A stretch of DNA of 64,000 nucleotides from Flavobacteriaceae bacterium. Lineage in GTDB: Bacteria > Bacteroidota > Bacteroidia > Flavobacteriales > Flavobacteriaceae. The notes beneath the pieces are model-generated. The model saw only the letters and a program-made list of their open reading frames with translations. It was not told the origin of the DNA and did not search any database. Made by a program: the position numbers and the translations under genes. Position 1 is the first letter of the stretch; each line of letters opens with the position of its first letter. The stretch is from positions 2,495,127 to 2,559,126 of the forward strand of contig OZ244589.1 of assembly GCA_965218065.1 (NCBI GenBank). The letters are read 5' to 3'. Positions 34,867 through 44,968 of the stretch are shown here, one piece after another.

Positions 34867-36606
34867 TTAATTGGAAGTAATATCATTGATTCTTTGATAT
34901 TGATCTAGAAAGTTTTTAAGGGAAATATCTTTATTGAGATTAAGCTTTTTGCGCACTCTATATCTATGCTTTTTTACAGAATCTTGCGTAATACTTTTAA
35001 GTTCACTAATTTCTCTAGATGTGATATCTAGAATCATAAGTGTACAAAGTTCTAAATCATTTTCTGTTAGGCTAGGAAATTCTTCTTTTAATTTAGCAAT
35101 TAAGTCGTACCTTTTCTTATCAAGTTGCTCTCTAATTAACAACTTTCTCCTATTCCCATTATTGCTTGCTCTAAGCTCTAGCAGTACTTTGAAAAAATTG
35201 AAATTTTTGGTCTTCTTATATATTTCAGAAATTTTTTGTGCTATTTGCTCCTTTTCTTTCATTAATCTGGTAGATTCAACAAGTAACGATATTGATTCTT
35301 TATCCTTATCATAGAGTCTATTCTCAATATTAATTACCTTATTTGATAATTCAAAACTTTCTTTTCTACTATTATTCAGCGCTACGTAGTTTATTAATAT
35401 TTGAATTAAAATAATGAGTAATGTAGCAATGTTAGAAAACATTTGTCCCCCAATAGATAATTCTAATTCAATAAAAAAGTCTAAGAAGAAGAGTGCAGAT
35501 ACAATAAATGTATTGACAAGTACTAATTTAGAATACGGTTTGTTTCCTATGGTGGCTTTGATGGAAAGGTAAATAATGTATACAAGTACAATCATTGTAG
35601 ATACATTATAAACAAGTAAAGAGTGTACAACCAAACTTGAAGAAACTAGCAGTGTATAAACAAAACAAGATGTATTTAAAATCATGACTAGGTTTCTGAT
35701 CCAGTTTTTTCTTTCTTTAGCAAGTATCTCTTTGTAATAAAATAGAAAAATGACAGGGGTAAAATACATGGTTATATACCTCCACATTAAAATAATATCG
35801 AAATTGATACCTGGAAATAACTCATAGATAACAGTTTGATCTACAAATAACTGCCTAGAACCAATAAACAAGCAAAAAAGGACAAAGTAGATTAATACTC
35901 TTTTTTTACTAATAAATAAATACACAAATAAGTGAATGAGAGCAATCATCAACATAAAAAAGCTCAGGGAAAATTCTAAGAGTCTATCTATTCTTTGTTC
36001 TTTAGTAAACGTTTCAATAGTAGAGAAGTAAGTATCGTATATAATTCCACCACCATATCTTTGATGATTATTAACAATAGATATTACAAGATCTATCTCT
36101 TTTTCTCTAGGTAATGCAAAAAATAGTGGTTTGCCATCGGGCACAGATTCTATATAATTTTTAGAAAAAGTCCCATGTTCTAATAATTTCTCCCCATTAG
36201 CCCATATAATACAGGCCGAAGAGACCCTTTTTATCTTCATAGCTAAGTTTAAATTAGTTGCCTGATTATTGATTTTTAATCGGAATGTCCCATAGCCTTT
36301 TGGAGGGTGACCATACTTAGACCATGAATCGTCCTTCATGGATATAAACTCTGCATCTGTTAAAAACTCAGCATTATAACTATTAACCGAGTCTAGTGGT
36401 AATTGATTCCAGAAAAAGAGCCATGCTCCTTGAAGTTTCTTAATCTTGAAATTATCAATCTCTTCTTCAAGAACTAGAATTTCTCCCTCCTTTTGTTCTT
36501 GGTTTGAAATATTTTTAGGTTGGCAAGCCCAAAAAAACACTCCAGCAACTAAAAACAACAGAGCTTTTACCGTGCACATGTAATAACATGACCATTTTGT
36601 ATACAT
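34867..36606 (-). CDS. 7TM sensor fused to a LuxR/GerE-type HTH (one-component regulator, 7TM-DISM-like)
   Basis: 579 aa. An N-terminal periplasmic domain and about seven TM helices, then a coiled coil. C-terminal HTH LTENDLELCTLMILDITSREISELKSITQDSVKKHRYRVRKKLNL. Confidence 0.75.
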   Translation of the reverse strand: MYTKWSCYYMCTVKALLFLVAGVFFWACQPKNISNQEQKEGEILVLEEEIDNFKIKKLQGAWLFFWNQLPLDSVNSYNAEFLTDAEFISMKDDSWSKYGHPPKGYGTFRLKINNQATNLNLAMKIKRVSSACIIWANGEKLLEHGTFSKNYIESVPDGKPLFFALPREKEIDLVISIVNNHQRYGGGIIYDTYFSTIETFTKEQRIDRLLEFSLSFFMLMIALIHLFVYLFISKKRVLIYFVLFCLFIGSRQLFVDQTVIYELFPGINFDIILMWRYITMYFTPVIFLFYYKEILAKERKNWIRNLVMILNTSCFVYTLLVSSSLVVHSLLVYNVSTMIVLVYIIYLSIKATIGNKPYSKLVLVNTFIVSALFFLDFFIELELSIGGQMFSNIATLLIILIQILINYVALNNSRKESFELSNKVINIENRLYDKDKESISLLVESTRLMKEKEQIAQKISEIYKKTKNFNFFKVLLELRASNNGNRRKLLIREQLDKKRYDLIAKLKEEFPSLTENDLELCTLMILDITSREISELKSITQDSVKKHRYRVRKKLNLNKDISLKNFLDQYQRINDITSN

Positions 36607-37286: not shown

Positions 37287-37314
37287 TTTGTAGCGGGAAC
37301 AGGACTCGAACCTG
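37287..37314 (-). repeat. Distal att repeat of the island: orphan 3' fragment of the tRNA-Met gene
   Basis: TTTGTAGCGGGAACAGGACTCGAACCTG is identical to 44892-44919. Confidence 0.85.
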
Positions 37315-37385: not shown

Positions 37386-38093
37386 TTATGCGTACTCCCA
37401 TTTATACCCTCCACTACTCTTTCTTTCATTTCTACAAACTTTTGAGATAGATGATTTATTGATTTTTGTCTCTTTAGAAGCTAAAGAAACTGATTCGTAT
37501 TCTTTCAACAACTCACCTTCCATAGAATATTGATACACTTTCTTTTTTCTCAAATCTTTAGTGGGTTTAAACTTCTCAACATAATCATACGTCCAGTAAT
37601 AATCACCTAGTTTCTTATTAACACTAAGGCATACCTTACTTAACTGTTTTTTTGATGTTTTAATCGATTCTCCAGCACTTTTTAATGAATCATAAGTATT
37701 CACTAATTTCCCTTCAAGATTATACTGATATATAGGTTTCTTAATCCCTCCCCCTATATCAGAATTCAATCCTTTCTCCTTAGAATTATATGCTCTGATA
37801 TAATCTCTTTCTTTCTTTGCTAATTCTTCTATCGAGTTCGCAGTATCAATTTGCTCCCATTTGAAATTATCAGCTCCAAAAGTTGCTATTGCACTATAAA
37901 ATTTTGTTTTCTTATCAGATTTAGACTTCAATATTTGGTCAGATTTTCTAACTAAAATACTATTAGTTGTAATACCTATGTAAATCTCTTTTGTTTCTTG
38001 ATTTGTTACTTTGTACACTATATTTAAAATACCTTTCTTCATAATTTTTTTAATTTTTCTTTTAGGGAACATCCTCTCAACCCCTTTATTCAT
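37386..38093 (-). CDS. GIY-YIG nuclease with two NUMOD1/IENR1-like DNA-binding repeats (homing-endonuclease-like)
   Basis: IVYKVTN..KEIYIGIT, a downstream Arg, KKERDYIRAYNS and GLNS align by eye with the I-TevI catalytic core. Two C-terminal repeats are present: YQYNLEGKLVNTYDSLKSAGE...YYWTY and YQYSMEGELLKEYESVSLASKE...YKWEY. The true start may be the MKKG Met. Confidence 0.75.
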   Translation of the reverse strand: MNKGVERMFPKRKIKKIMKKGILNIVYKVTNQETKEIYIGITTNSILVRKSDQILKSKSDKKTKFYSAIATFGADNFKWEQIDTANSIEELAKKERDYIRAYNSKEKGLNSDIGGGIKKPIYQYNLEGKLVNTYDSLKSAGESIKTSKKQLSKVCLSVNKKLGDYYWTYDYVEKFKPTKDLRKKKVYQYSMEGELLKEYESVSLASKETKINKSSISKVCRNERKSSGGYKWEYA

Positions 38094-38140: not shown

Positions 38141-39445
38141 CTAAGCTATTTTAAGGTTCGTTTTGTCTTCTACATTTAAAAGGAATTCTCCATCTAGCCA
38201 CTTATATAATAAACTCCTCATTCTGTAGCTAGGAATAAATAAATTCATTTCCTTGCTATCTCTTATGCATCCTCTCCAAACCCATTGTAGTAACTCTCCC
38301 AATGACCATAAATCTTGGTTTAATTCTACATCACGCTCTCTAAAAAAACTGGTTATCTGTGGTGTGAAATATCGATTAGCAAAATATGCCATAGATTTTA
38401 TATTTCTATATTCATTTGTTGCTCTAGAGTTAACAGGAATGAACCCTCTTCTATAACTATTTCCAGAAAATTTAGATTTATAATTTTTGAATGTTGTAAA
38501 TGCATTTTCTTTTGAAGATGTTTTAAATCTTCGTTTAAAAATGTTTGTTGCTTTTTTACTCATTTTCTTAGCAGTACTCTTATTTACCTTTTTACACCAA
38601 GATTCACTAAATGATACCATTGAGTGCTTAGATTGATTCGCTCTACCTTCATAAACATTTAATAGTTTTTTAATCTTCTCCAGTTCAAGGGTTTCATCGC
38701 TTCTAATCAACGTATAATCTATATTAAAAACTTTAAAATAAGCACAAAGTAAGCTCCCTTCAAATAAGTAAGTTAATATCTCTACTTCTTTTAATTCTTT
38801 AAAAATTTCTATAGGGAATACCCAAACAAAAAAGTATTGGTCTAACAAGAATACGGTAAAGCTATTTAGCATGTACTTTATTTGCTTGAAGAGAGGGTCT
38901 GAATATTCATCCTTAACAAATCTCACTTCATTTGTTTTTTCATCAACAGAGATTAAATTTTGCTCTATCATGATGTTAATATCCTGCTCTCCTATATATT
39001 CAGCTTTTAGTGGTGTAACAACTTCATCAAGGATTAATATATAATCACTGAAAAAGCTATAATCTTCTTTCTTTAATCCTAGAAATAGAGAGTGAGTAGA
39101 AACAACACATTTACCTTCACTTAGAAGCCTAAAAAAATGCTCTCTTTTATTTATTCTTTTAATTAGTGGTTCTTTATTCAAATCTATCTGTCCATTTGAA
39201 TCTATAAGGTTTGTGTCATAATTTAGAATGGCTTTCCCACTATCATCTTCTCCTGTAGGAGCATATACAGTTCCATCAGGTAATCTTTCAATAATTCTAT
39301 CAACCTCTGATAGAAATGGTGTGATGTAAATAAACTTTTTCTCACTCTTAACATATTTCTTCATTCTCTCAATAGCATTATAGGTTTTACCACTACCCAT
39401 AATAGCATCATAAACTTTAATTTTTTTCATATCTAACAATGTCAC
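38141..39445 (-). CDS. P-loop NTPase, minimal SF2-helicase-like
   Basis: 434 aa. Walker A MGSGKTY, ITP, Walker B/DExx LILDEVV and a motif-VI-like QWVWRGCIR. No further family assignment is possible by eye. Confidence 0.6.
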   Translation of the reverse strand: MTLLDMKKIKVYDAIMGSGKTYNAIERMKKYVKSEKKFIYITPFLSEVDRIIERLPDGTVYAPTGEDDSGKAILNYDTNLIDSNGQIDLNKEPLIKRINKREHFFRLLSEGKCVVSTHSLFLGLKKEDYSFFSDYILILDEVVTPLKAEYIGEQDINIMIEQNLISVDEKTNEVRFVKDEYSDPLFKQIKYMLNSFTVFLLDQYFFVWVFPIEIFKELKEVEILTYLFEGSLLCAYFKVFNIDYTLIRSDETLELEKIKKLLNVYEGRANQSKHSMVSFSESWCKKVNKSTAKKMSKKATNIFKRRFKTSSKENAFTTFKNYKSKFSGNSYRRGFIPVNSRATNEYRNIKSMAYFANRYFTPQITSFFRERDVELNQDLWSLGELLQWVWRGCIRDSKEMNLFIPSYRMRSLLYKWLDGEFLLNVEDKTNLKIA

Positions 39446-39880: not shown

Positions 39881-40330
39881 TTATTCATCTAGAATTCCAA
39901 CTAAACCATTATCTATTGAATAGTTAGTGTAAACTTTTATGTTCTCGTATGAAACAGGTTTTGATTCAGGGATTTTCTTAGAGTACAATTTAATTTTAAG
40001 GTAATTACCATTTTTTACAATTAGAGTTAAAGATTCATCTCTACTTATAAAATTATAAATTGTCTTATCATTTGAACTATTATTGTTCAATTCAATACTT
40101 ATAAAATTAAAGCTATTTTTAATCCTGTTAGTTGAATAACTAATTTTTTTATTAGCCATATCAAAACTCCATGTCATAAAGAGATCTTCATGTTCAAACT
40201 CTCCTAAACTGGCAGATGTTTTAACTTCATATTCCTCGGTTGTTTTAATGGTAAACTTATTTTGGGCCTGAACATTATAAAATGTTAATCCAATAAAAAC
40301 CATAATTATAAATCTAATAAGTGTTTTCAT
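39881..40330 (-). CDS. Secreted beta-rich hypothetical protein (island cargo)
   Basis: 149 aa with signal peptide MKTLIRFIIMVFIGLTFYNVQAQ. Confidence 0.5.
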   Translation of the reverse strand: MKTLIRFIIMVFIGLTFYNVQAQNKFTIKTTEEYEVKTSASLGEFEHEDLFMTWSFDMANKKISYSTNRIKNSFNFISIELNNNSSNDKTIYNFISRDESLTLIVKNGNYLKIKLYSKKIPESKPVSYENIKVYTNYSIDNGLVGILDE

Positions 40331-40418: not shown

Positions 40419-40643
40419 GTGATAAATATTAAGAATCAAGAATTTATTTCTGCCTTTGGTGGAAATCTTAGAAAATTAAGATTAGGAGCTAAAATGTCTC
40501 AAGAAGATTTAGCAAATGATTCGGATATTCCACTTTCTCAAATTGGAAGAATTGAAAGAGGTGAAATTAACACAACCATCTCTACTGTCTATGCATTAGC
40601 AAAAGCTTTAAACATCAATACTTCTACCCTTTTTACATTTTAA
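40419..40643 (+). CDS. XRE-family helix-turn-helix regulator
   Basis: 74 aa with a GTG start. LRKLRLGAKMSQEDLANDSDIPLSQIGRIERGEINTTISTVYALAKAL. Confidence 0.8.
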   Translation: MINIKNQEFISAFGGNLRKLRLGAKMSQEDLANDSDIPLSQIGRIERGEINTTISTVYALAKALNINTSTLFTF

Positions 40644-40797: not shown

Positions 40798-41505
40798 GTG
40801 GAAAATAATCGTACTAATAACATTTTATTTAATAATAAGTTAGCTGAATTTCAAGCTAATAAAAGAAAAGATGGTTATATAAATTTTGAAGGATATTATG
40901 ATTTAAAAGAAATTTTTTTCTTGTATTCCAAAGTACTTCATCTAAAGTCAAAAAATTACAATTTACTAAGCATTCAAACCATAAATACCTTAACTGAGGG
41001 ATTCACAATAAATCAACAAATAGAATTATATGAATATTTGATAAAATGTTTGATTTCTGAGGTTCATATAGAGGAGTCTAAAAAGGTGTCTATAGAACTC
41101 AAAAAACTAAAAATTAAAAAATGTTCTAAAAAAATTAAGTCGTTTAAATCTCCAATAAAGGAATTTTTCCGATTGCTTTTATTATGTAGTTCTTATAATA
41201 TTGCTTCACTACTTTTAAGTCTACTTATAGTATTACTTTTTTCTACAATAATCTATTCCACAGCTCCAATAGATTCTATGGCAATAATCAATGTTGAGTT
41301 TAAAGAAATTACTTCAAATACGTTTATCAATTCTTTTTTAAATGTTCTACTTTATATCCTAGATTTTGACTATAAGATGAGTGTTGAGCCAATAAATGCA
41401 TCTGGAGTTTTGTTAATGATTTTCTTAAAATGTATTTTCTATCTGGTCATTATAAATTATATTGTTGTTGAAATTCAAAAAAAATTAAAATATTATGACC
41501 GTTAA
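40798..41505 (+). CDS. Membrane protein with a C-terminal 2-TM, pore-loop-like module
   Basis: 235 aa with a GTG start. A soluble ~125-aa N-terminus is followed by TM1, FINSFLNVLLYILDFDYKMSVEP (pore-helix-like with a degenerate filter) and TM2. It overlaps the next gene by 11 nt. Confidence 0.5.
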   Translation: MENNRTNNILFNNKLAEFQANKRKDGYINFEGYYDLKEIFFLYSKVLHLKSKNYNLLSIQTINTLTEGFTINQQIELYEYLIKCLISEVHIEESKKVSIELKKLKIKKCSKKIKSFKSPIKEFFRLLLLCSSYNIASLLLSLLIVLLFSTIIYSTAPIDSMAIINVEFKEITSNTFINSFLNVLLYILDFDYKMSVEPINASGVLLMIFLKCIFYLVIINYIVVEIQKKLKYYDR

Positions 41506-43168
41506 GAATTTGGATTTTCACTTACGCAAAGGAAACTCTTTTGTTTGGCGTTTTTTATTATTAATAATTCTTATTGTTGGAGTTTCTACTGATAAAAATA
41601 ATCTTCCTCTAAGCAATTACTTTTATATAGGAGCACCTTTTCTTTATTTGATTTTGTTGATAATTCATTTAAGGCTAAAAGCAAATATTAAAGCCCTTTT
41701 TAGGTTATTATTAGATCTATCCATTATTATTTTGTTTAGTTATGAGAGAAATTTAAATAATGTAATTATATTTCTTCCATATCTTATCTTAATTATAAAT
41801 TCAGTTAACTTCTCTGGTACTAAAAATAGATATTTATTATTCTTTTTATTGGTAAATGTTGCTTTGGTAATCTCTAGTAAGTTCGAAATAAATTGGATTC
41901 TACACTTTTCATTATTTATTCTGTCAGTCTTGATGCTGATTTTCAATTTTAGGAAGGTTATTTTTGAATTTAATAATATGGTCAATGATGATATTGGCGA
42001 AATATTTTTCAAAAGTTTTGATAATGGAGATGAGCATAAAATCCTAATTTCTATTAAGGATAGAATTAATAAAGCTAAAACTTTTGCCAAGATTAATGAA
42101 ATTTTCATTTTCACAAGAAGAGATGAAAATCTAATTTTGATAAAAGGAACTAAATATATTTACTCAAATCCCACAATTGGAGAGGATACTCTAAATAAAA
42201 TTAAAACTAATAAAGGTAACTTTGAGGTGCTTAAGGATGAGATAATAATTGATGATATCTCATATCGTAATACTTTTTGGATAAAACTGAATATAGCTGA
42301 TATTGATTACTTTTTCATGGTATCATCTGGAAGGGGGGAAACTTCGAACTGGAGTGATTCTATGATACTTAATGCTTGTAGACCAATATTTAATCAACTT
42401 GCCCGAGTTTATCAAATAGCATATGTTCTCAAAAATCTAAGAAAAGATGAAACTGAACTCATAAAAAATAAAATCTCTTATGTTTTTGACTCTATAAATG
42501 CACTTCATTTTGTAAAGAATAAACTCTCACCTGTTTCTCTAAAATTAGATTTGATTGATAGGTATATGAATAAAAGAGATGATTATTCAGATTCTCAATT
42601 AAGCGAAATCAAGAAAGAATTATCAAAATCTGACCCTCAGATATTAAGGAATATTTTTGATAGAGCAGAAGTTCTAATCAGAGGTGTTGATAATATAATT
42701 TTAAAGGAAGATGGCTTATTTAAACTAGGTAGAATAATTGATTTAGTTAAAGATGAGTGGATATATCAATTCAATAATTGGAATGGATTGAAAATTAATA
42801 TTGAGCGACCTCAAGATTATGAAATTCATACTAACTTAGAAGTATTAGGATATATATTTGGAGATTTAATTGCTAACATTGAGAACTATTCCGATAGCAG
42901 AAGAGAGTTAAATATTTTTCTTTCTGAATTAAAGGACTATGTTGTTTTTGAGTTTTTAAATGATACTAAAGATTATAATAAATCTATTTCAGAACTTATT
43001 GAAATAGCTAGAATCTATAATGAAGAAAATAATGATGAAATCTATAATAGAACAACAAAAGGTCTAAGTCTCGTTCGTAGATTATCTAGATATAAGCAAA
43101 TAAAGACTGAGATTATTATTGATACTGATAATAAACTTTATAAATTCTATATTCACCTTAAAACCTAG
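41495..43168 (+). CDS. LytS-like membrane sensor histidine-kinase-like protein
   Basis: 557 aa with about six N-terminal TM helices. H-box-like SINALHFVKNKLSPV (compare PHFLFN of the His_kinase family), N-box-like GDLIANIENYS and G-box-like TTKGLSLVRRL. Confidence 0.6.
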   Translation: MTVKNLDFHLRKGNSFVWRFLLLIILIVGVSTDKNNLPLSNYFYIGAPFLYLILLIIHLRLKANIKALFRLLLDLSIIILFSYERNLNNVIIFLPYLILIINSVNFSGTKNRYLLFFLLVNVALVISSKFEINWILHFSLFILSVLMLIFNFRKVIFEFNNMVNDDIGEIFFKSFDNGDEHKILISIKDRINKAKTFAKINEIFIFTRRDENLILIKGTKYIYSNPTIGEDTLNKIKTNKGNFEVLKDEIIIDDISYRNTFWIKLNIADIDYFFMVSSGRGETSNWSDSMILNACRPIFNQLARVYQIAYVLKNLRKDETELIKNKISYVFDSINALHFVKNKLSPVSLKLDLIDRYMNKRDDYSDSQLSEIKKELSKSDPQILRNIFDRAEVLIRGVDNIILKEDGLFKLGRIIDLVKDEWIYQFNNWNGLKINIERPQDYEIHTNLEVLGYIFGDLIANIENYSDSRRELNIFLSELKDYVVFEFLNDTKDYNKSISELIEIARIYNEENNDEIYNRTTKGLSLVRRLSRYKQIKTEIIIDTDNKLYKFYIHLKT

Positions 43169-43171
43169 AGA

Positions 43172-43540
43172 ATGAATGTTTTAATTTTTGAAAATGAAAT
43201 CAAAGAAGTTGATAGAAGTTTTGAGCTTTGTAATTCTTTAGATTTTGGAAATAAATTAAATTTTAATTGGGTTACCAAATCTCAAGATTTTGAAGACTTA
43301 TCAAAAGTGCATGAATATGATGTGGTAATAATTGATATAGATTTGTCAACTAAAAGTGCATTAGATGGTTATGCTTTACTAAATTTAATTATCAATGAAC
43401 AAGGTCATGAAAATGTCTTTGTAATGAGTGGTCATGAGGTTGAAAATGAATTGAAAAAAAGAGGGCTCGGAAAAATTGATTTTTTAAAGAAACCTATTAT
43501 TCTTGATGAATTATCACATCTGTTAAAGAGTTATTTATAG
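43172..43540 (+). CDS. Stand-alone receiver (REC) domain protein
   Basis: 122 aa. MNVLIFENE, YDVVIIDIDL (candidate acceptor Asp), VFVMSGH and FLKKP. There is no output domain. It starts 3 nt after the kinase gene. Confidence 0.65.
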   Translation: MNVLIFENEIKEVDRSFELCNSLDFGNKLNFNWVTKSQDFEDLSKVHEYDVVIIDIDLSTKSALDGYALLNLIINEQGHENVFVMSGHEVENELKKRGLGKIDFLKKPIILDELSHLLKSYL

Positions 43541-44709
43541 AGTCTCCTTATTTCATCACTTATTCTCTTCTTTACAACTTCACCATAATGTTTCTGTGTG
43601 GTTTGTATTTTGGAGTGTCCTAATAACTTGGATACAACTTCAATAGAAATATTATTACTTAACAAAACAGTAGTTGCAAAAGTTTTCCTAGCTATATGAT
43701 GTGTAAGATTCTTCTCAATCCCTACGATATGAGCAATTTCTTTTAAATAAGAGTTAAACTTTTGATTAGATATTTTAGGCAACTCATAATTATATTTATT
43801 TAAAATGATTTTGGCATTGTTCAAAAGTGGAATGGATAGACTTGATTTTGTCTTTTTCCTATACATTTCTATCCAATCATTATTATCAAAACCTACAACT
43901 ATGTTATTTTTAGTAAAACTATTCATTTCTTGATATGCTAACCCTGTGTAACAGCAGAAAATAAACAAGTCTTTAACATGCTGTAATCTGTTTTGCTTAA
44001 AATTGTATTCTTCTAAGTTCTTTAATTCATCTTTTGTCAAGTATATCAAATTATTAATCACTCTTTTGGGTTTATATAATATAAACGGGTCTGTCGTTAT
44101 ATACCCCTCCGCCAATGCTATCTTAATTATTTTTCTAATTCTTTGAATGGTTTTATTAATAGTTATTTGTTTATGATTTAACTCTGATTTCAAATAAAAG
44201 TCCAAATCATCGATGAATTTTAAGGTTATCTTTTCAAGAAGAATATCATTTCTTTTATATGAACTCTTGAAAAAGTTTAATAGATGCTTTTTAGCTTCTT
44301 TAAACTTGTTTAATGTAGATCTAGAATATTCCTTTCCAATAAGTTTCTCCATTCTATTATTATGCAAATCAAAGACTTCTAAGAGGGTTTTATCACTCTT
44401 TACCCCATTACCTCTATAAAGTGAATAAACATCTCTTACATCGAAGTTTTCATCATTCATTTTTAGGTATAAAAAAGCCTGATTAAGTTCTTGTCTAATC
44501 AGGCTAATTTGATTGTTTGTATAATCATTATCATCAGGTATATAGGCTTTTTGTTTTTTACTTTTCCAATGATTAGGATTAATAAATAATCCTGTGGAAA
44601 ATTCCTTCCTACGGCTATTAAATGTTATCCTACATCTTATTGGGCATTTATGTTTTTTGTTAATTCTACTTTTTTGAAGATAAAATAAGACTCTTAATTT
44701 AACACTCAT
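43531..44709 (-). CDS. Tyrosine-type site-specific integrase (Bacteroidota phage-integrase family)
   Basis: 392 aa. N-terminal arm-binding-type region (FYLQKSRINKKHKCPIRCRITF) and C-terminal catalytic HIARKTFAT ... LLGHSKIQTTQKHY. It sits next to the tRNA. Confidence 0.9.
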   Translation of the reverse strand: MSVKLRVLFYLQKSRINKKHKCPIRCRITFNSRRKEFSTGLFINPNHWKSKKQKAYIPDDNDYTNNQISLIRQELNQAFLYLKMNDENFDVRDVYSLYRGNGVKSDKTLLEVFDLHNNRMEKLIGKEYSRSTLNKFKEAKKHLLNFFKSSYKRNDILLEKITLKFIDDLDFYLKSELNHKQITINKTIQRIRKIIKIALAEGYITTDPFILYKPKRVINNLIYLTKDELKNLEEYNFKQNRLQHVKDLFIFCCYTGLAYQEMNSFTKNNIVVGFDNNDWIEMYRKKTKSSLSIPLLNNAKIILNKYNYELPKISNQKFNSYLKEIAHIVGIEKNLTHHIARKTFATTVLLSNNISIEVVSKLLGHSKIQTTQKHYGEVVKKRISDEIRRLYK

Positions 44710-44886: not shown

Positions 44887-44895
44887 CTCATTTTG

Positions 44896-44968
<73 letters not shown>

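Follow-up and report, generated by a model that had tools for sequence, protein, structure and literature searches.

What is the role of three closely spaced genes that sit together on a small integrative island in the genome of a Flavobacteriaceae bacterium? The genes, here called A, B and C, lie in a stretch of 64,000 nucleotides (nt) of contig OZ244589.1 (GenBank assembly GCA_965218065.1, positions 2,495,127 to 2,559,126 of the forward strand), which is referred to as the window. They are predicted to encode a membrane protein, a protein resembling a sensor histidine kinase and a receiver protein. Is this triad an ordinary signalling module carried as island cargo? Is it a relative of a described system such as Detocs or LytS/LytTR? 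Or, is it a different arrangement that serves in phage defence? We tentatively favour the last of these. In this reading, which we hold with somewhat less than even confidence, A-B-C is a self-contained mobile phosphotransfer cassette, most probably an anti-phage system of the abortive-infection or exclusion type in Bacteroidota. That the cassette has a defence function is, taken by itself, moderately probable, and the triad is a good candidate for a new two-component-type defence system.

The three open reading frames (ORFs) are on the plus strand at the coordinates given for them in a preliminary description of the locus (Table 1). An 11-nt overlap joins A to B, a 3-nt gap separates B from C, and the three genes are translationally coupled. 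They are not chance reading frames: all three recur as full-length homologues, with the order unchanged, in 16 other distinct loci. The order persists among distant relatives: the A homologues P0033 (E value 4e-30) and P0165 (E 4e-14) are each followed by a gene for a protein of about 560 amino acids (aa) and then by a Response_reg gene of about 125–130 aa. In all, A-B-C order was found in 17 of 17 distinct loci, including the two distant ones, and the junctions range from -20 to +4 nt. This constancy identifies the triad as a conserved unit.

How large is the family? Word-index searches returned 12 homologues of B and about a dozen of A, all of them from Flavobacteriaceae (among them Flavobacterium, Kordia and Hyunsoonleella), and the close family occupies 6 loci among 185,579 species genomes, with one more in the JGI metagenomes. 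An exhaustive search with a profile hidden Markov model (HMM) of A gave at least 278 representatives (clusters at 50% identity) at E ≤ 1e-3, with 201 at E ≤ 1e-10. The tiny size (12 B and 2–11 A proteins) to which the word-index searches had pointed was therefore dismissed as a sensitivity artefact. The representatives are nearly all 235–260 aa long and are matched over their full length, and the named members are all Flavobacteriaceae or Bacteroidia. The A family is without annotation, its homologues being labelled 'hypothetical protein', and no Pfam domain was found in the ten distant A members that were checked. The triad is much more widespread than its annotation suggests.

C had been described as a receiver-only protein, and this is what it is. 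The Pfam family PF00072 (Response_reg) matches it with 35.9 bits, above the cut-off of 30.2, and also matches the C proteins of two further loci (L022 and L024). The quintet of residues around the phospho-acceptor is invariant. When the C proteins of 13 loci, including two distant ones, are aligned, E7-N8-E9, D55, T/S86-G87 and K107-P108 do not vary, and the acidic pair of the pocket is E-x-E instead of D-D. The protein consists of the receiver domain alone. To judge from its sequence, C is a catalytically complete receiver without an output domain. The sole match of C in PADLOC-DB v2 was PDC-M60C at E 0.015. In another locus (L015), C has a sub-threshold match to the cREC_REC family (E 0.0034), probably a reflection of nothing more than the likeness among receivers in general.

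Is B a kinase? No significant match to B was found in Pfam, NCBIfam, PADLOC or PHROGs, or in the PDB by phmmer and by hmmsearch with profiles of the full-length protein and of only its putative dimerisation and histidine phosphotransfer (DHp) and catalytic and ATP-binding (CA) domains. Likewise, neither the DHp profiles HisKA, HisKA_3 and His_kinase nor HATPase_c significantly matched any of 12 B members. With the sequence profiles negative, the kinase assignment rests on fold and motifs. An AlphaFold2 (AF2) model built from 12 homologues has a mean predicted local distance difference test score (pLDDT) of 69, falling below 50 at residues 315–342 and 390–446. It comprises six transmembrane (TM) helices (3–177), an alpha/beta domain (181–314), helices at 317–358 and 381–399 and a second alpha/beta domain (411–557). 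A hydropathy scan agrees with the model on the six hydrophobic helices, about six having been proposed before, and both depict B without a periplasmic or other extracytoplasmic domain. When the model was compared with the PDB by Foldseek, nearly all of the 50 matches listed were sensor kinases or GAF domains (probability 0.97–1.0). The best was a bacteriophytochrome histidine kinase (E 1.9e-6); others were WalK, NifL, YF1, HK853, DesK, AgrC, CpxA and VanS, and the middle domain of B matched the GAF domains 3ci6, 5hl6 and 3e0y.

The motifs of B point the same way. Down to 19–20% identity, the residues H338, N342, L344 and P346 of the H-box, N461 of the N-box, N489, and G523-L524 of the G2 box are invariant; N461 is accompanied by K464, and the motif residues as a whole are invariant or nearly so. 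The two top matches of the DHp-CA profile in the PDB were the CA domains of SrrB and YycG, with E values of only 0.2–0.3 and with the N-box and G2 box in register. A distant B member gave a weak HATPase_c match, again in register (E 0.21), and one B member in UniRef is named 'GHKL domain-containing protein'. On the strength of the model, B would be a very divergent membrane sensor histidine kinase with the domain order six TM helices, GAF-like, DHp and CA. The description of B as a membrane protein resembling histidine kinases is upheld by the fold matches and by the invariant H-box, N-box and G2 motifs. Its further description as 'LytS-type' holds for the architecture (multiple TM helices, GAF-like, DHp, CA) and for the H-box HF..N.L, which is contained in the quoted string ALHFVKNKL (B 336–344), and fails for the PF06580 and HATPase_c profiles of Pfam and NCBIfam.

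A is an inner-membrane protein in which a cytosolic helical domain is joined to a conserved two-TM module. In its AF2 model (pLDDT 81.6) the cytosolic part is all-helical, residues 1–131 forming a six-helix domain. There is no alpha/beta receiver, and the putative membrane effector thus lacks a receiver domain, as had been stated. The membrane part is made up of TM1 (135–152), a beta strand (164–167), an amphipathic helix (175–187), a second beta strand (195–198) and TM2 (201–233). Hydropathy together with the positive-inside rule places the N-terminus and the tail in the cell interior and the acidic loop outside. This membrane module is the most conserved part of the protein, and the N-terminal domain is more variable. 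Near-invariant in 54 family members are N178 and N182 (98%), which are on the same face of the loop helix, and K211 and N220 (87%) in TM2; G203 and, in the cytosolic domain, D35, K37 and Y54 are also conserved.

Does A form a channel? The segment FINSFLNVLLYILDFDYKMSVEP (A 176–198) had been read, together with the TM helices around it, as an ion-channel-like pore. The order TM1, short helix, TM2 is present in the model. Of membrane proteins, only Kir6.2 in the PDB and three small viral K+ channels in BFVD were matched by fold, all non-significantly (E 0.4–2). Comparison of A by hhalign with KcsA, NaK and Kcv gave a probability of 0.1%, and Ion_trans_2 did not match the A family at E ≤ 1. More generally, A has no significant profile or fold match, and none to Response_reg. 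Because these matches are non-significant and the segment in the place of a selectivity filter is variable, the channel reading of A is a topological resemblance and not an established membership. The N-terminal domain has weak, non-significant fold matches (E > 0.3) to helical repeats of the SNAP, TPR and ARM kinds. Two profile matches of A in the PDB, an internalin leucine-rich repeat at E 0.08 and an HNH-nuclease protein at E 0.06, were weak and were put down to chance. A histidine phosphotransfer-like role for the helical domain was rejected, since no His is conserved across the family.

The triad had been described as cargo of an integrase-bearing island. The integrase, the attachment (att) repeats and the tRNA target have all been found, and the limits of the island are now defined. 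It is 7.6 kb long and is flanked by exact 28-nt direct repeat copies of the tRNA-Met 3' end; its G+C content is 0.24–0.29, as against about 0.35 outside. In the other loci the setting is different each time, and in no pair of genomes is the position conserved. Dcm and Vsr lie upstream of one triad (L016), and downstream of it are HsdM, HsdS and a pair consisting of PtuA (6e-49) and PDC-M01B; these downstream neighbours are a type I restriction-modification (RM) system and a Septu-like pair, and an integrase is nearby. Upx is directly downstream of the triad in L008 and L012, where DUF3871 and RadC genes are also found. PDC-S36 (1e-93) is directly upstream in L022, with a lone LytTR regulator about 7 kb away. 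In L002 an integrase gene is directly upstream and a 1458-aa LmuA-like/PDC-M54A STAND protein is encoded nearby. The neighbours in L019 are a patatin gene upstream and HTH_17, NikA and relaxase genes downstream, those in L001 are a PDC-S48-like DEDDh/GIY-YIG gene and a PIF1-type helicase gene, and L024 lies within a prophage, among genes for a head-maturation protease, a tape-measure-like protein and endonucleases.

At least 8 of the 13 loci with enough flanking sequence have integrase, relaxase, insertion sequence (IS), prophage or known or candidate defence genes within 10 kb, as a raw count. Known or candidate defence genes directly adjoin the triad in at least five independent loci, and a prophage surrounds it in another. 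The cassette moves between unrelated sites, which are mostly mobile elements, defence islands or prophage. A conserved core-genome locus with a LytTR regulator as partner, a scenario put forward earlier as one that would speak against a defence module, was not encountered; instead, the surroundings differ between loci and abound in mobile-element and defence genes. This defence-island context makes it more likely that the triad has a distinct, undescribed phosphorelay-gated membrane effector, which had been one of the two suggestions for it.

How might such a cassette work? B would sense a membrane or cytosolic perturbation linked to infection and would autophosphorylate on His338, and the phosphate would then pass to Asp55 of C. 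Phosphorylated C (C~P) would bind the cytosolic domain of A, the sole remaining conserved partner, upon which the membrane module of A, with its Asn178/Asn182 helix and Lys211, might oligomerise or open. The membrane potential would dissipate, phage replication would stop and the infection would abort. A is the most likely target of C~P because a cassette that works in many backgrounds has to bring its output with it, and C is devoid of one. In line with A as the output, conservation is highest in its membrane module, with the polar residues N178, N182 and K211. Additionally, A alone is inactivated in two loci (L007 and L020; Table 1), the pattern that an effector with a fitness cost should leave. 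Several known membrane effectors are built in the manner of A, with TM helices at the C-terminus after a cytosolic domain. Gating of A by C~P is an idea that ranges from doubtful to, at best, plausible. A bolder form of it, in which the phosphorylated stand-alone receiver serves as a diffusible second messenger, gating a new family of small pore-loop-like channels and so bringing about abortive infection, is rather unlikely.

Several observations weigh against the anti-phage cassette as we have drawn it. Kinase activity of B is not assured, because the Asp position of its G1 box is taken by an invariant Asn, N489 (42959–42961); the flanking glycines are also missing, where SrrB has DtGtG. The substitution at N489 may, from the sequence, alter nucleotide binding. 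Confidence in the model of B is only moderate, with a pLDDT of 69 that drops below 50 around the H-box. The likeness of A to channels is non-significant, and its would-be filter (188–193) is the most variable part of the loop among the 54 members. The binding of C~P to A is itself a proposal. Neither A nor B is matched by any model of PADLOC, Pfam, NCBIfam or PHROG, and no homologues of B were found in the viral-contig, GenBank phage and PLSDB plasmid collections. Lastly, about 13 loci had flanks long enough for the survey of contexts, and in three of them clear mobile or defence genes are lacking: L004, among catabolic genes; L011, with BlaI/BlaR-like genes and a LytTR two-component system beside it; and L015 (Flavobacterium ponti), beside SDR and AraC genes.

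Could A be the sensor rather than the output? B has invariant charged residues within its TM helices (R70, D74 and R153), as A has with K211, and these equally fit a membrane complex of A and B in which A is an accessory co-sensor of an intramembrane-sensing kinase. The TPR-like cytosolic domain of A, or its small outer loop, would then detect the stimulus and control B through contacts between TM helices, C~P would act on an external target of the host or the phage, and the whole might still be defensive. LiaF, BceAB and YycHI are accessory proteins that serve their kinases in this manner, CheY, DivK and Spo0F are single-domain regulators, and kinases that lack an extracytoplasmic domain, as B does, typically rely on accessory membrane proteins. 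The overlap of A and B implies stoichiometric co-expression. The helical repeats that the N-terminal domain of A weakly resembles are a typical scaffold for protein recognition, and this domain is the more variable one, as sensors tend to be; its fold matches are, however, non-significant, and those polar residues of A that are best conserved sit in the membrane module and not at a recognisable ligand site. An external target of C~P would also have to be universal across genera, prophages and integrative elements, yet none is co-conserved. We regard the co-sensor role as rather unlikely. Or, does the triad have no defence role at all, being an ordinary accessory signalling module such as a sensor of the environment or of envelope stress, or a regulator of element maintenance? 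Two-component genes are common as island cargo, L004, L011 and L015 show contexts without mobile or defence genes close by, and no defence model is matched. However, the cassette has neither a DNA-binding nor an enzymatic output, it keeps its position in no pair of genomes and it adjoins defence genes or lies in prophage as described above. Moreover, its patchy and rare occurrence, as measured for the close family, fits accessory conflict genes better than housekeeping signalling. A module without a defence role is distinctly unlikely.

Membership in a described system fares worse. If the triad were of the LytS/LytTR or Agr type, A would be a holin- or antiholin-like protein under kinase control and the LytTR regulator would be encoded elsewhere. 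LytSR controls the holin-like lrgAB genes in staphylococci, the order of domains and the HF..N.L H-box of B are like those of LytS-type kinases, and AgrC is among the fold matches of B. On the other hand, PF06580 and the 5TM-LYT domain (PF07694) are found in none of the 12 B members, and the receiver that is conserved alongside B lacks a LytTR domain. Only in L011 does the triad adjoin a LytTR system, and L022 has only its lone, more distant regulator. The kinase of that L011 system matches PF06580 (1.8e-26), has a LytTR partner and served as the verified LytS-type reference: hhalign of the DHp-CA profile of B against it gave a probability of 0.1%, so membership of B in the PF06580/LytS family was rejected, and the LytS or Agr explanation is very improbable. 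The remaining candidate is Detocs, the three-gene defensive His-to-Asp two-component system of Rousset et al., with the kinase DtcA, the receiver-only DtcB and the receiver-effector DtcC (bioRxiv 10.1101/2023.01.24.525353). Both have three genes, with a histidine kinase and a standalone receiver among their products, and a minority of Detocs operons have transmembrane effectors (bioRxiv 10.1101/2023.01.24.525353). The logic of kinase, receiver-only protein and effector that had been noted in the triad is a fair analogy with Detocs. Membership is another matter. A is all-helical and is not a fusion of receiver and effector, the N-terminus of B is embedded in the membrane by six TM helices and carries no TPR sensor, and the order of the genes is different. 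PADLOC-DB v2 gave no match for A or B at E ≤ 1, in a release whose Dtc models were not confirmed. Because the receiver-effector fusion, the TPR sensor and an HMM match are all lacking, membership was rejected; that the triad is a divergent Detocs is barely credible.

What else does the island carry? Its genes, from left to right, are a GIY-YIG/NUMOD1 gene, a gene for a phrog_2467 P-loop protein, a 149-aa ORF, an XRE/HTH_3 gene, A-B-C and the integrase gene, which is convergent with C and overlaps it by 10 nt at its 3' end. The nuclease and NTPase neighbours that had been mentioned are therefore both on the island, and no response regulator with a DNA-binding domain was found there, in agreement with the preliminary description. 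The free-standing GIY-YIG/NUMOD1 gene is the last before the left att repeat and is outside the triad. The P-loop NTPase has the motifs GSGKT and LILDEV and shows 34% identity, across 98% of its length, with hypothetical proteins encoded by SPbeta/phi3T-like Bacillus phages and by Acinetobacter phages. It also has a weak Csm6-HEPN-like match at residues 242–321. This protein may be a replication or mobilisation protein of the island, or another defence gene. The 149-aa ORF (39881–40330, minus strand) has a signal-peptide-like N-terminus, is divergent to the helix-turn-helix (HTH) gene and has no family match in any library. That XRE/HTH_3 gene ends 154 nt upstream of A and is not a conserved member of the cassette. 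HTH_3 genes are also close to the triad in L008, L019 and L022, and transcriptional control of the cassette by this regulator is possible. A scan for sigma-70 promoters was uninformative, giving 25 sites where 26 were expected, with a consensus that differs from the promoters of Bacteroidota. Just outside the island (34867–36606, minus strand) is a gene for a one-component membrane sensor-regulator of 579 aa, in which a 7TMR-DISM 7TM domain is combined with a LuxR/GerE-type HTH at the C-terminus.

Table 1. Features of the triad and of its island in the window, with the inactivated copies of A (positions in L007 and L020 are those of the respective locus)
Feature	Sequence	Position	Strand	Remarks
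Gene A	window	40798-41505	+	235 aa; GTG start
Membrane module of A, residues 126-235	window	41173-41502	+	TM1, loop helix, TM2 (model, conservation)
Gene B	window	41495-43168	+	557 aa
Codon of His338 of B, predicted autophosphorylation site	window	42506-42508	+	invariant NALHFVKNKLSP motif; on model helix 317-358
Gene C	window	43172-43540	+	122 aa
Codon of Asp55 of C, predicted phospho-acceptor	window	43334-43336	+	invariant; last residue of the VVIID strand
tRNA-Met integrative island, left boundary repeat (attL-like)	window	37287-37314		TTTGTAGCGGGAACAGGACTCGAACCTG, 100% identical to 44892-44919
GIY-YIG + 2x NUMOD1 homing-endonuclease-like gene	window	37386-38093	-	NUMOD1 1.4e-14, GIY-YIG 5.4e-5, phrog_314 1.1e-17
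P-loop NTPase, phage family phrog_2467	window	38141-39445	-	434 aa; phrog_2467 at 2.5e-65; outside the triad
XRE/HTH_3 regulator	window	40419-40643	+	HTH_3 8e-14; PADLOC HTH_VI and RM 'control protein' models about 1e-11
Tyrosine integrase	window	43531-44709	-	Arm-DNA-bind_5, SAM_5, Phage_integrase
tRNA-Met	window	44895-44968	-	right boundary repeat 44892-44919 = tRNA 3' end
Gene A with in-frame stop	L007	7286-7999		…IFDLYS*TFHLKG…; B and C intact
Truncated gene A	L020	5612-5998		128 aa; IS1595 transposase gene directly upstream; B and C intact

A few neighbours of the triad in other loci deserve mention in their own right. In L007 (4761–6717, minus strand), QueC and a 439-aa protein with a nucleoside 2-deoxyribosyltransferase domain are encoded beside the triad, and this pair may be a modification or defence module related to 7-deazaguanine. 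A WYL/WCX regulator gene and a gene for the RNA ligase RtcB lie directly upstream of the triad in L015 (5254–8817). Large ORFs are found in L019 (390–5171, minus strand; 1593 aa), with no Pfam or PADLOC match, and in the prophage of L024 (2632–6042, plus strand; 1136 aa), with no Pfam match and only weak tape-measure-like PHROG matches.

Why would the triad matter? If it is defensive, it would represent a second, independently evolved route from two-component signalling to immunity, and it would add three unannotated protein families, among them a histidine kinase that current profiles do not detect. It would also open up phage defence in Flavobacteriia and other Bacteroidota, in which few systems have been tested. 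Should the channel-gating idea be true, A would be an ion channel gated by protein phosphate, widespread in Bacteroidota (at least 278 clusters) and present in no domain or defence database searched. Profile models of the A and B families are worth making whatever the function, given the hundreds of homologues that are now called 'hypothetical protein'.

How, then, does the triad compare with known systems? B shares with LytS/YehU (PF06580) and with AgrC the order of multiple TM helices, a GAF domain in some, DHp and CA, as well as the H-F-x-x-N-x-L motif and the absence of a periplasmic sensor domain, and AgrC, DesK and WalK are among its fold matches. Unlike LytS/YehU, it has no match to PF06580, 5TMR-LYT or HATPase_c, its G1 Asp is Asn and its partner is receiver-only instead of LytTR. 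With KcsA, Kir and the viral Kcv channels, A shares a predicted topology in which the N-terminus is inside, TM1 leads to a short helix in an outward acidic loop, and TM2 leads back to an inside C-terminus. It differs from them in having no TxGYG-like filter, the equivalent segment being the least conserved, and in the two short beta strands that flank its helix. The TM effectors of CBASS and Pycsar are gated membrane effectors of defence systems. Hailong HalA is a DNA-gated tetrameric channel (reviewed in PMC13434031). By analogy with these, A would be a small protein with a cytosolic regulatory domain and few TM helices, encoded beside a signal-generating partner and predicted to cause depolarisation, but here the gating signal would be a phosphorylated receiver and not a nucleotide or DNA. 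No sequence similarity or significant fold similarity of A to HalA or the other effectors was found, and the formation of a pore by A is only predicted.

Two-component logic in defence is not new, since both Detocs and Ambrosia have been described. Ambrosia is a validated defence operon of Gammaproteobacteria composed of XRE, methylase, HATPase kinase, a receiver fused to a winged HTH (REC-wHTH) and HNH (bioRxiv 10.1101/2025.09.30.679545). Like the triad, it combines a kinase-receiver pair with an XRE regulator nearby; in contrast to the triad, its receiver has a DNA-binding domain and controls RM-like enzymes, and it has no membrane protein. In Detocs, the effector DtcC carries a receiver of its own, DtcB is a phosphate buffer and DtcA is cytosolic, with TPRs (bioRxiv 10.1101/2023.01.24.525353). 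The triad would resemble Detocs as a stand-alone immune module and three-gene operon of the His-to-Asp phosphotransfer type that includes a receiver-only protein and is carried as accessory cargo. There is no detectable sequence homology between the two, and they come from different phyla. C would be the sole phosphate acceptor of the triad, the membrane protein A has no receiver, and B is a six-TM kinase with a GAF-like domain, unlike the cytosolic DtcA. Within the libraries and the searchable literature this wiring is new: the kinase is in the membrane, a receiver-only protein would be the only transmitter, and the two-TM protein stands apart from both. None of the three families has an entry in the profile libraries. 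If the triad is defensive, it is in these respects, the membrane-embedded kinase, the single receiver-only transmitter and the separate membrane output, that it departs from Detocs.

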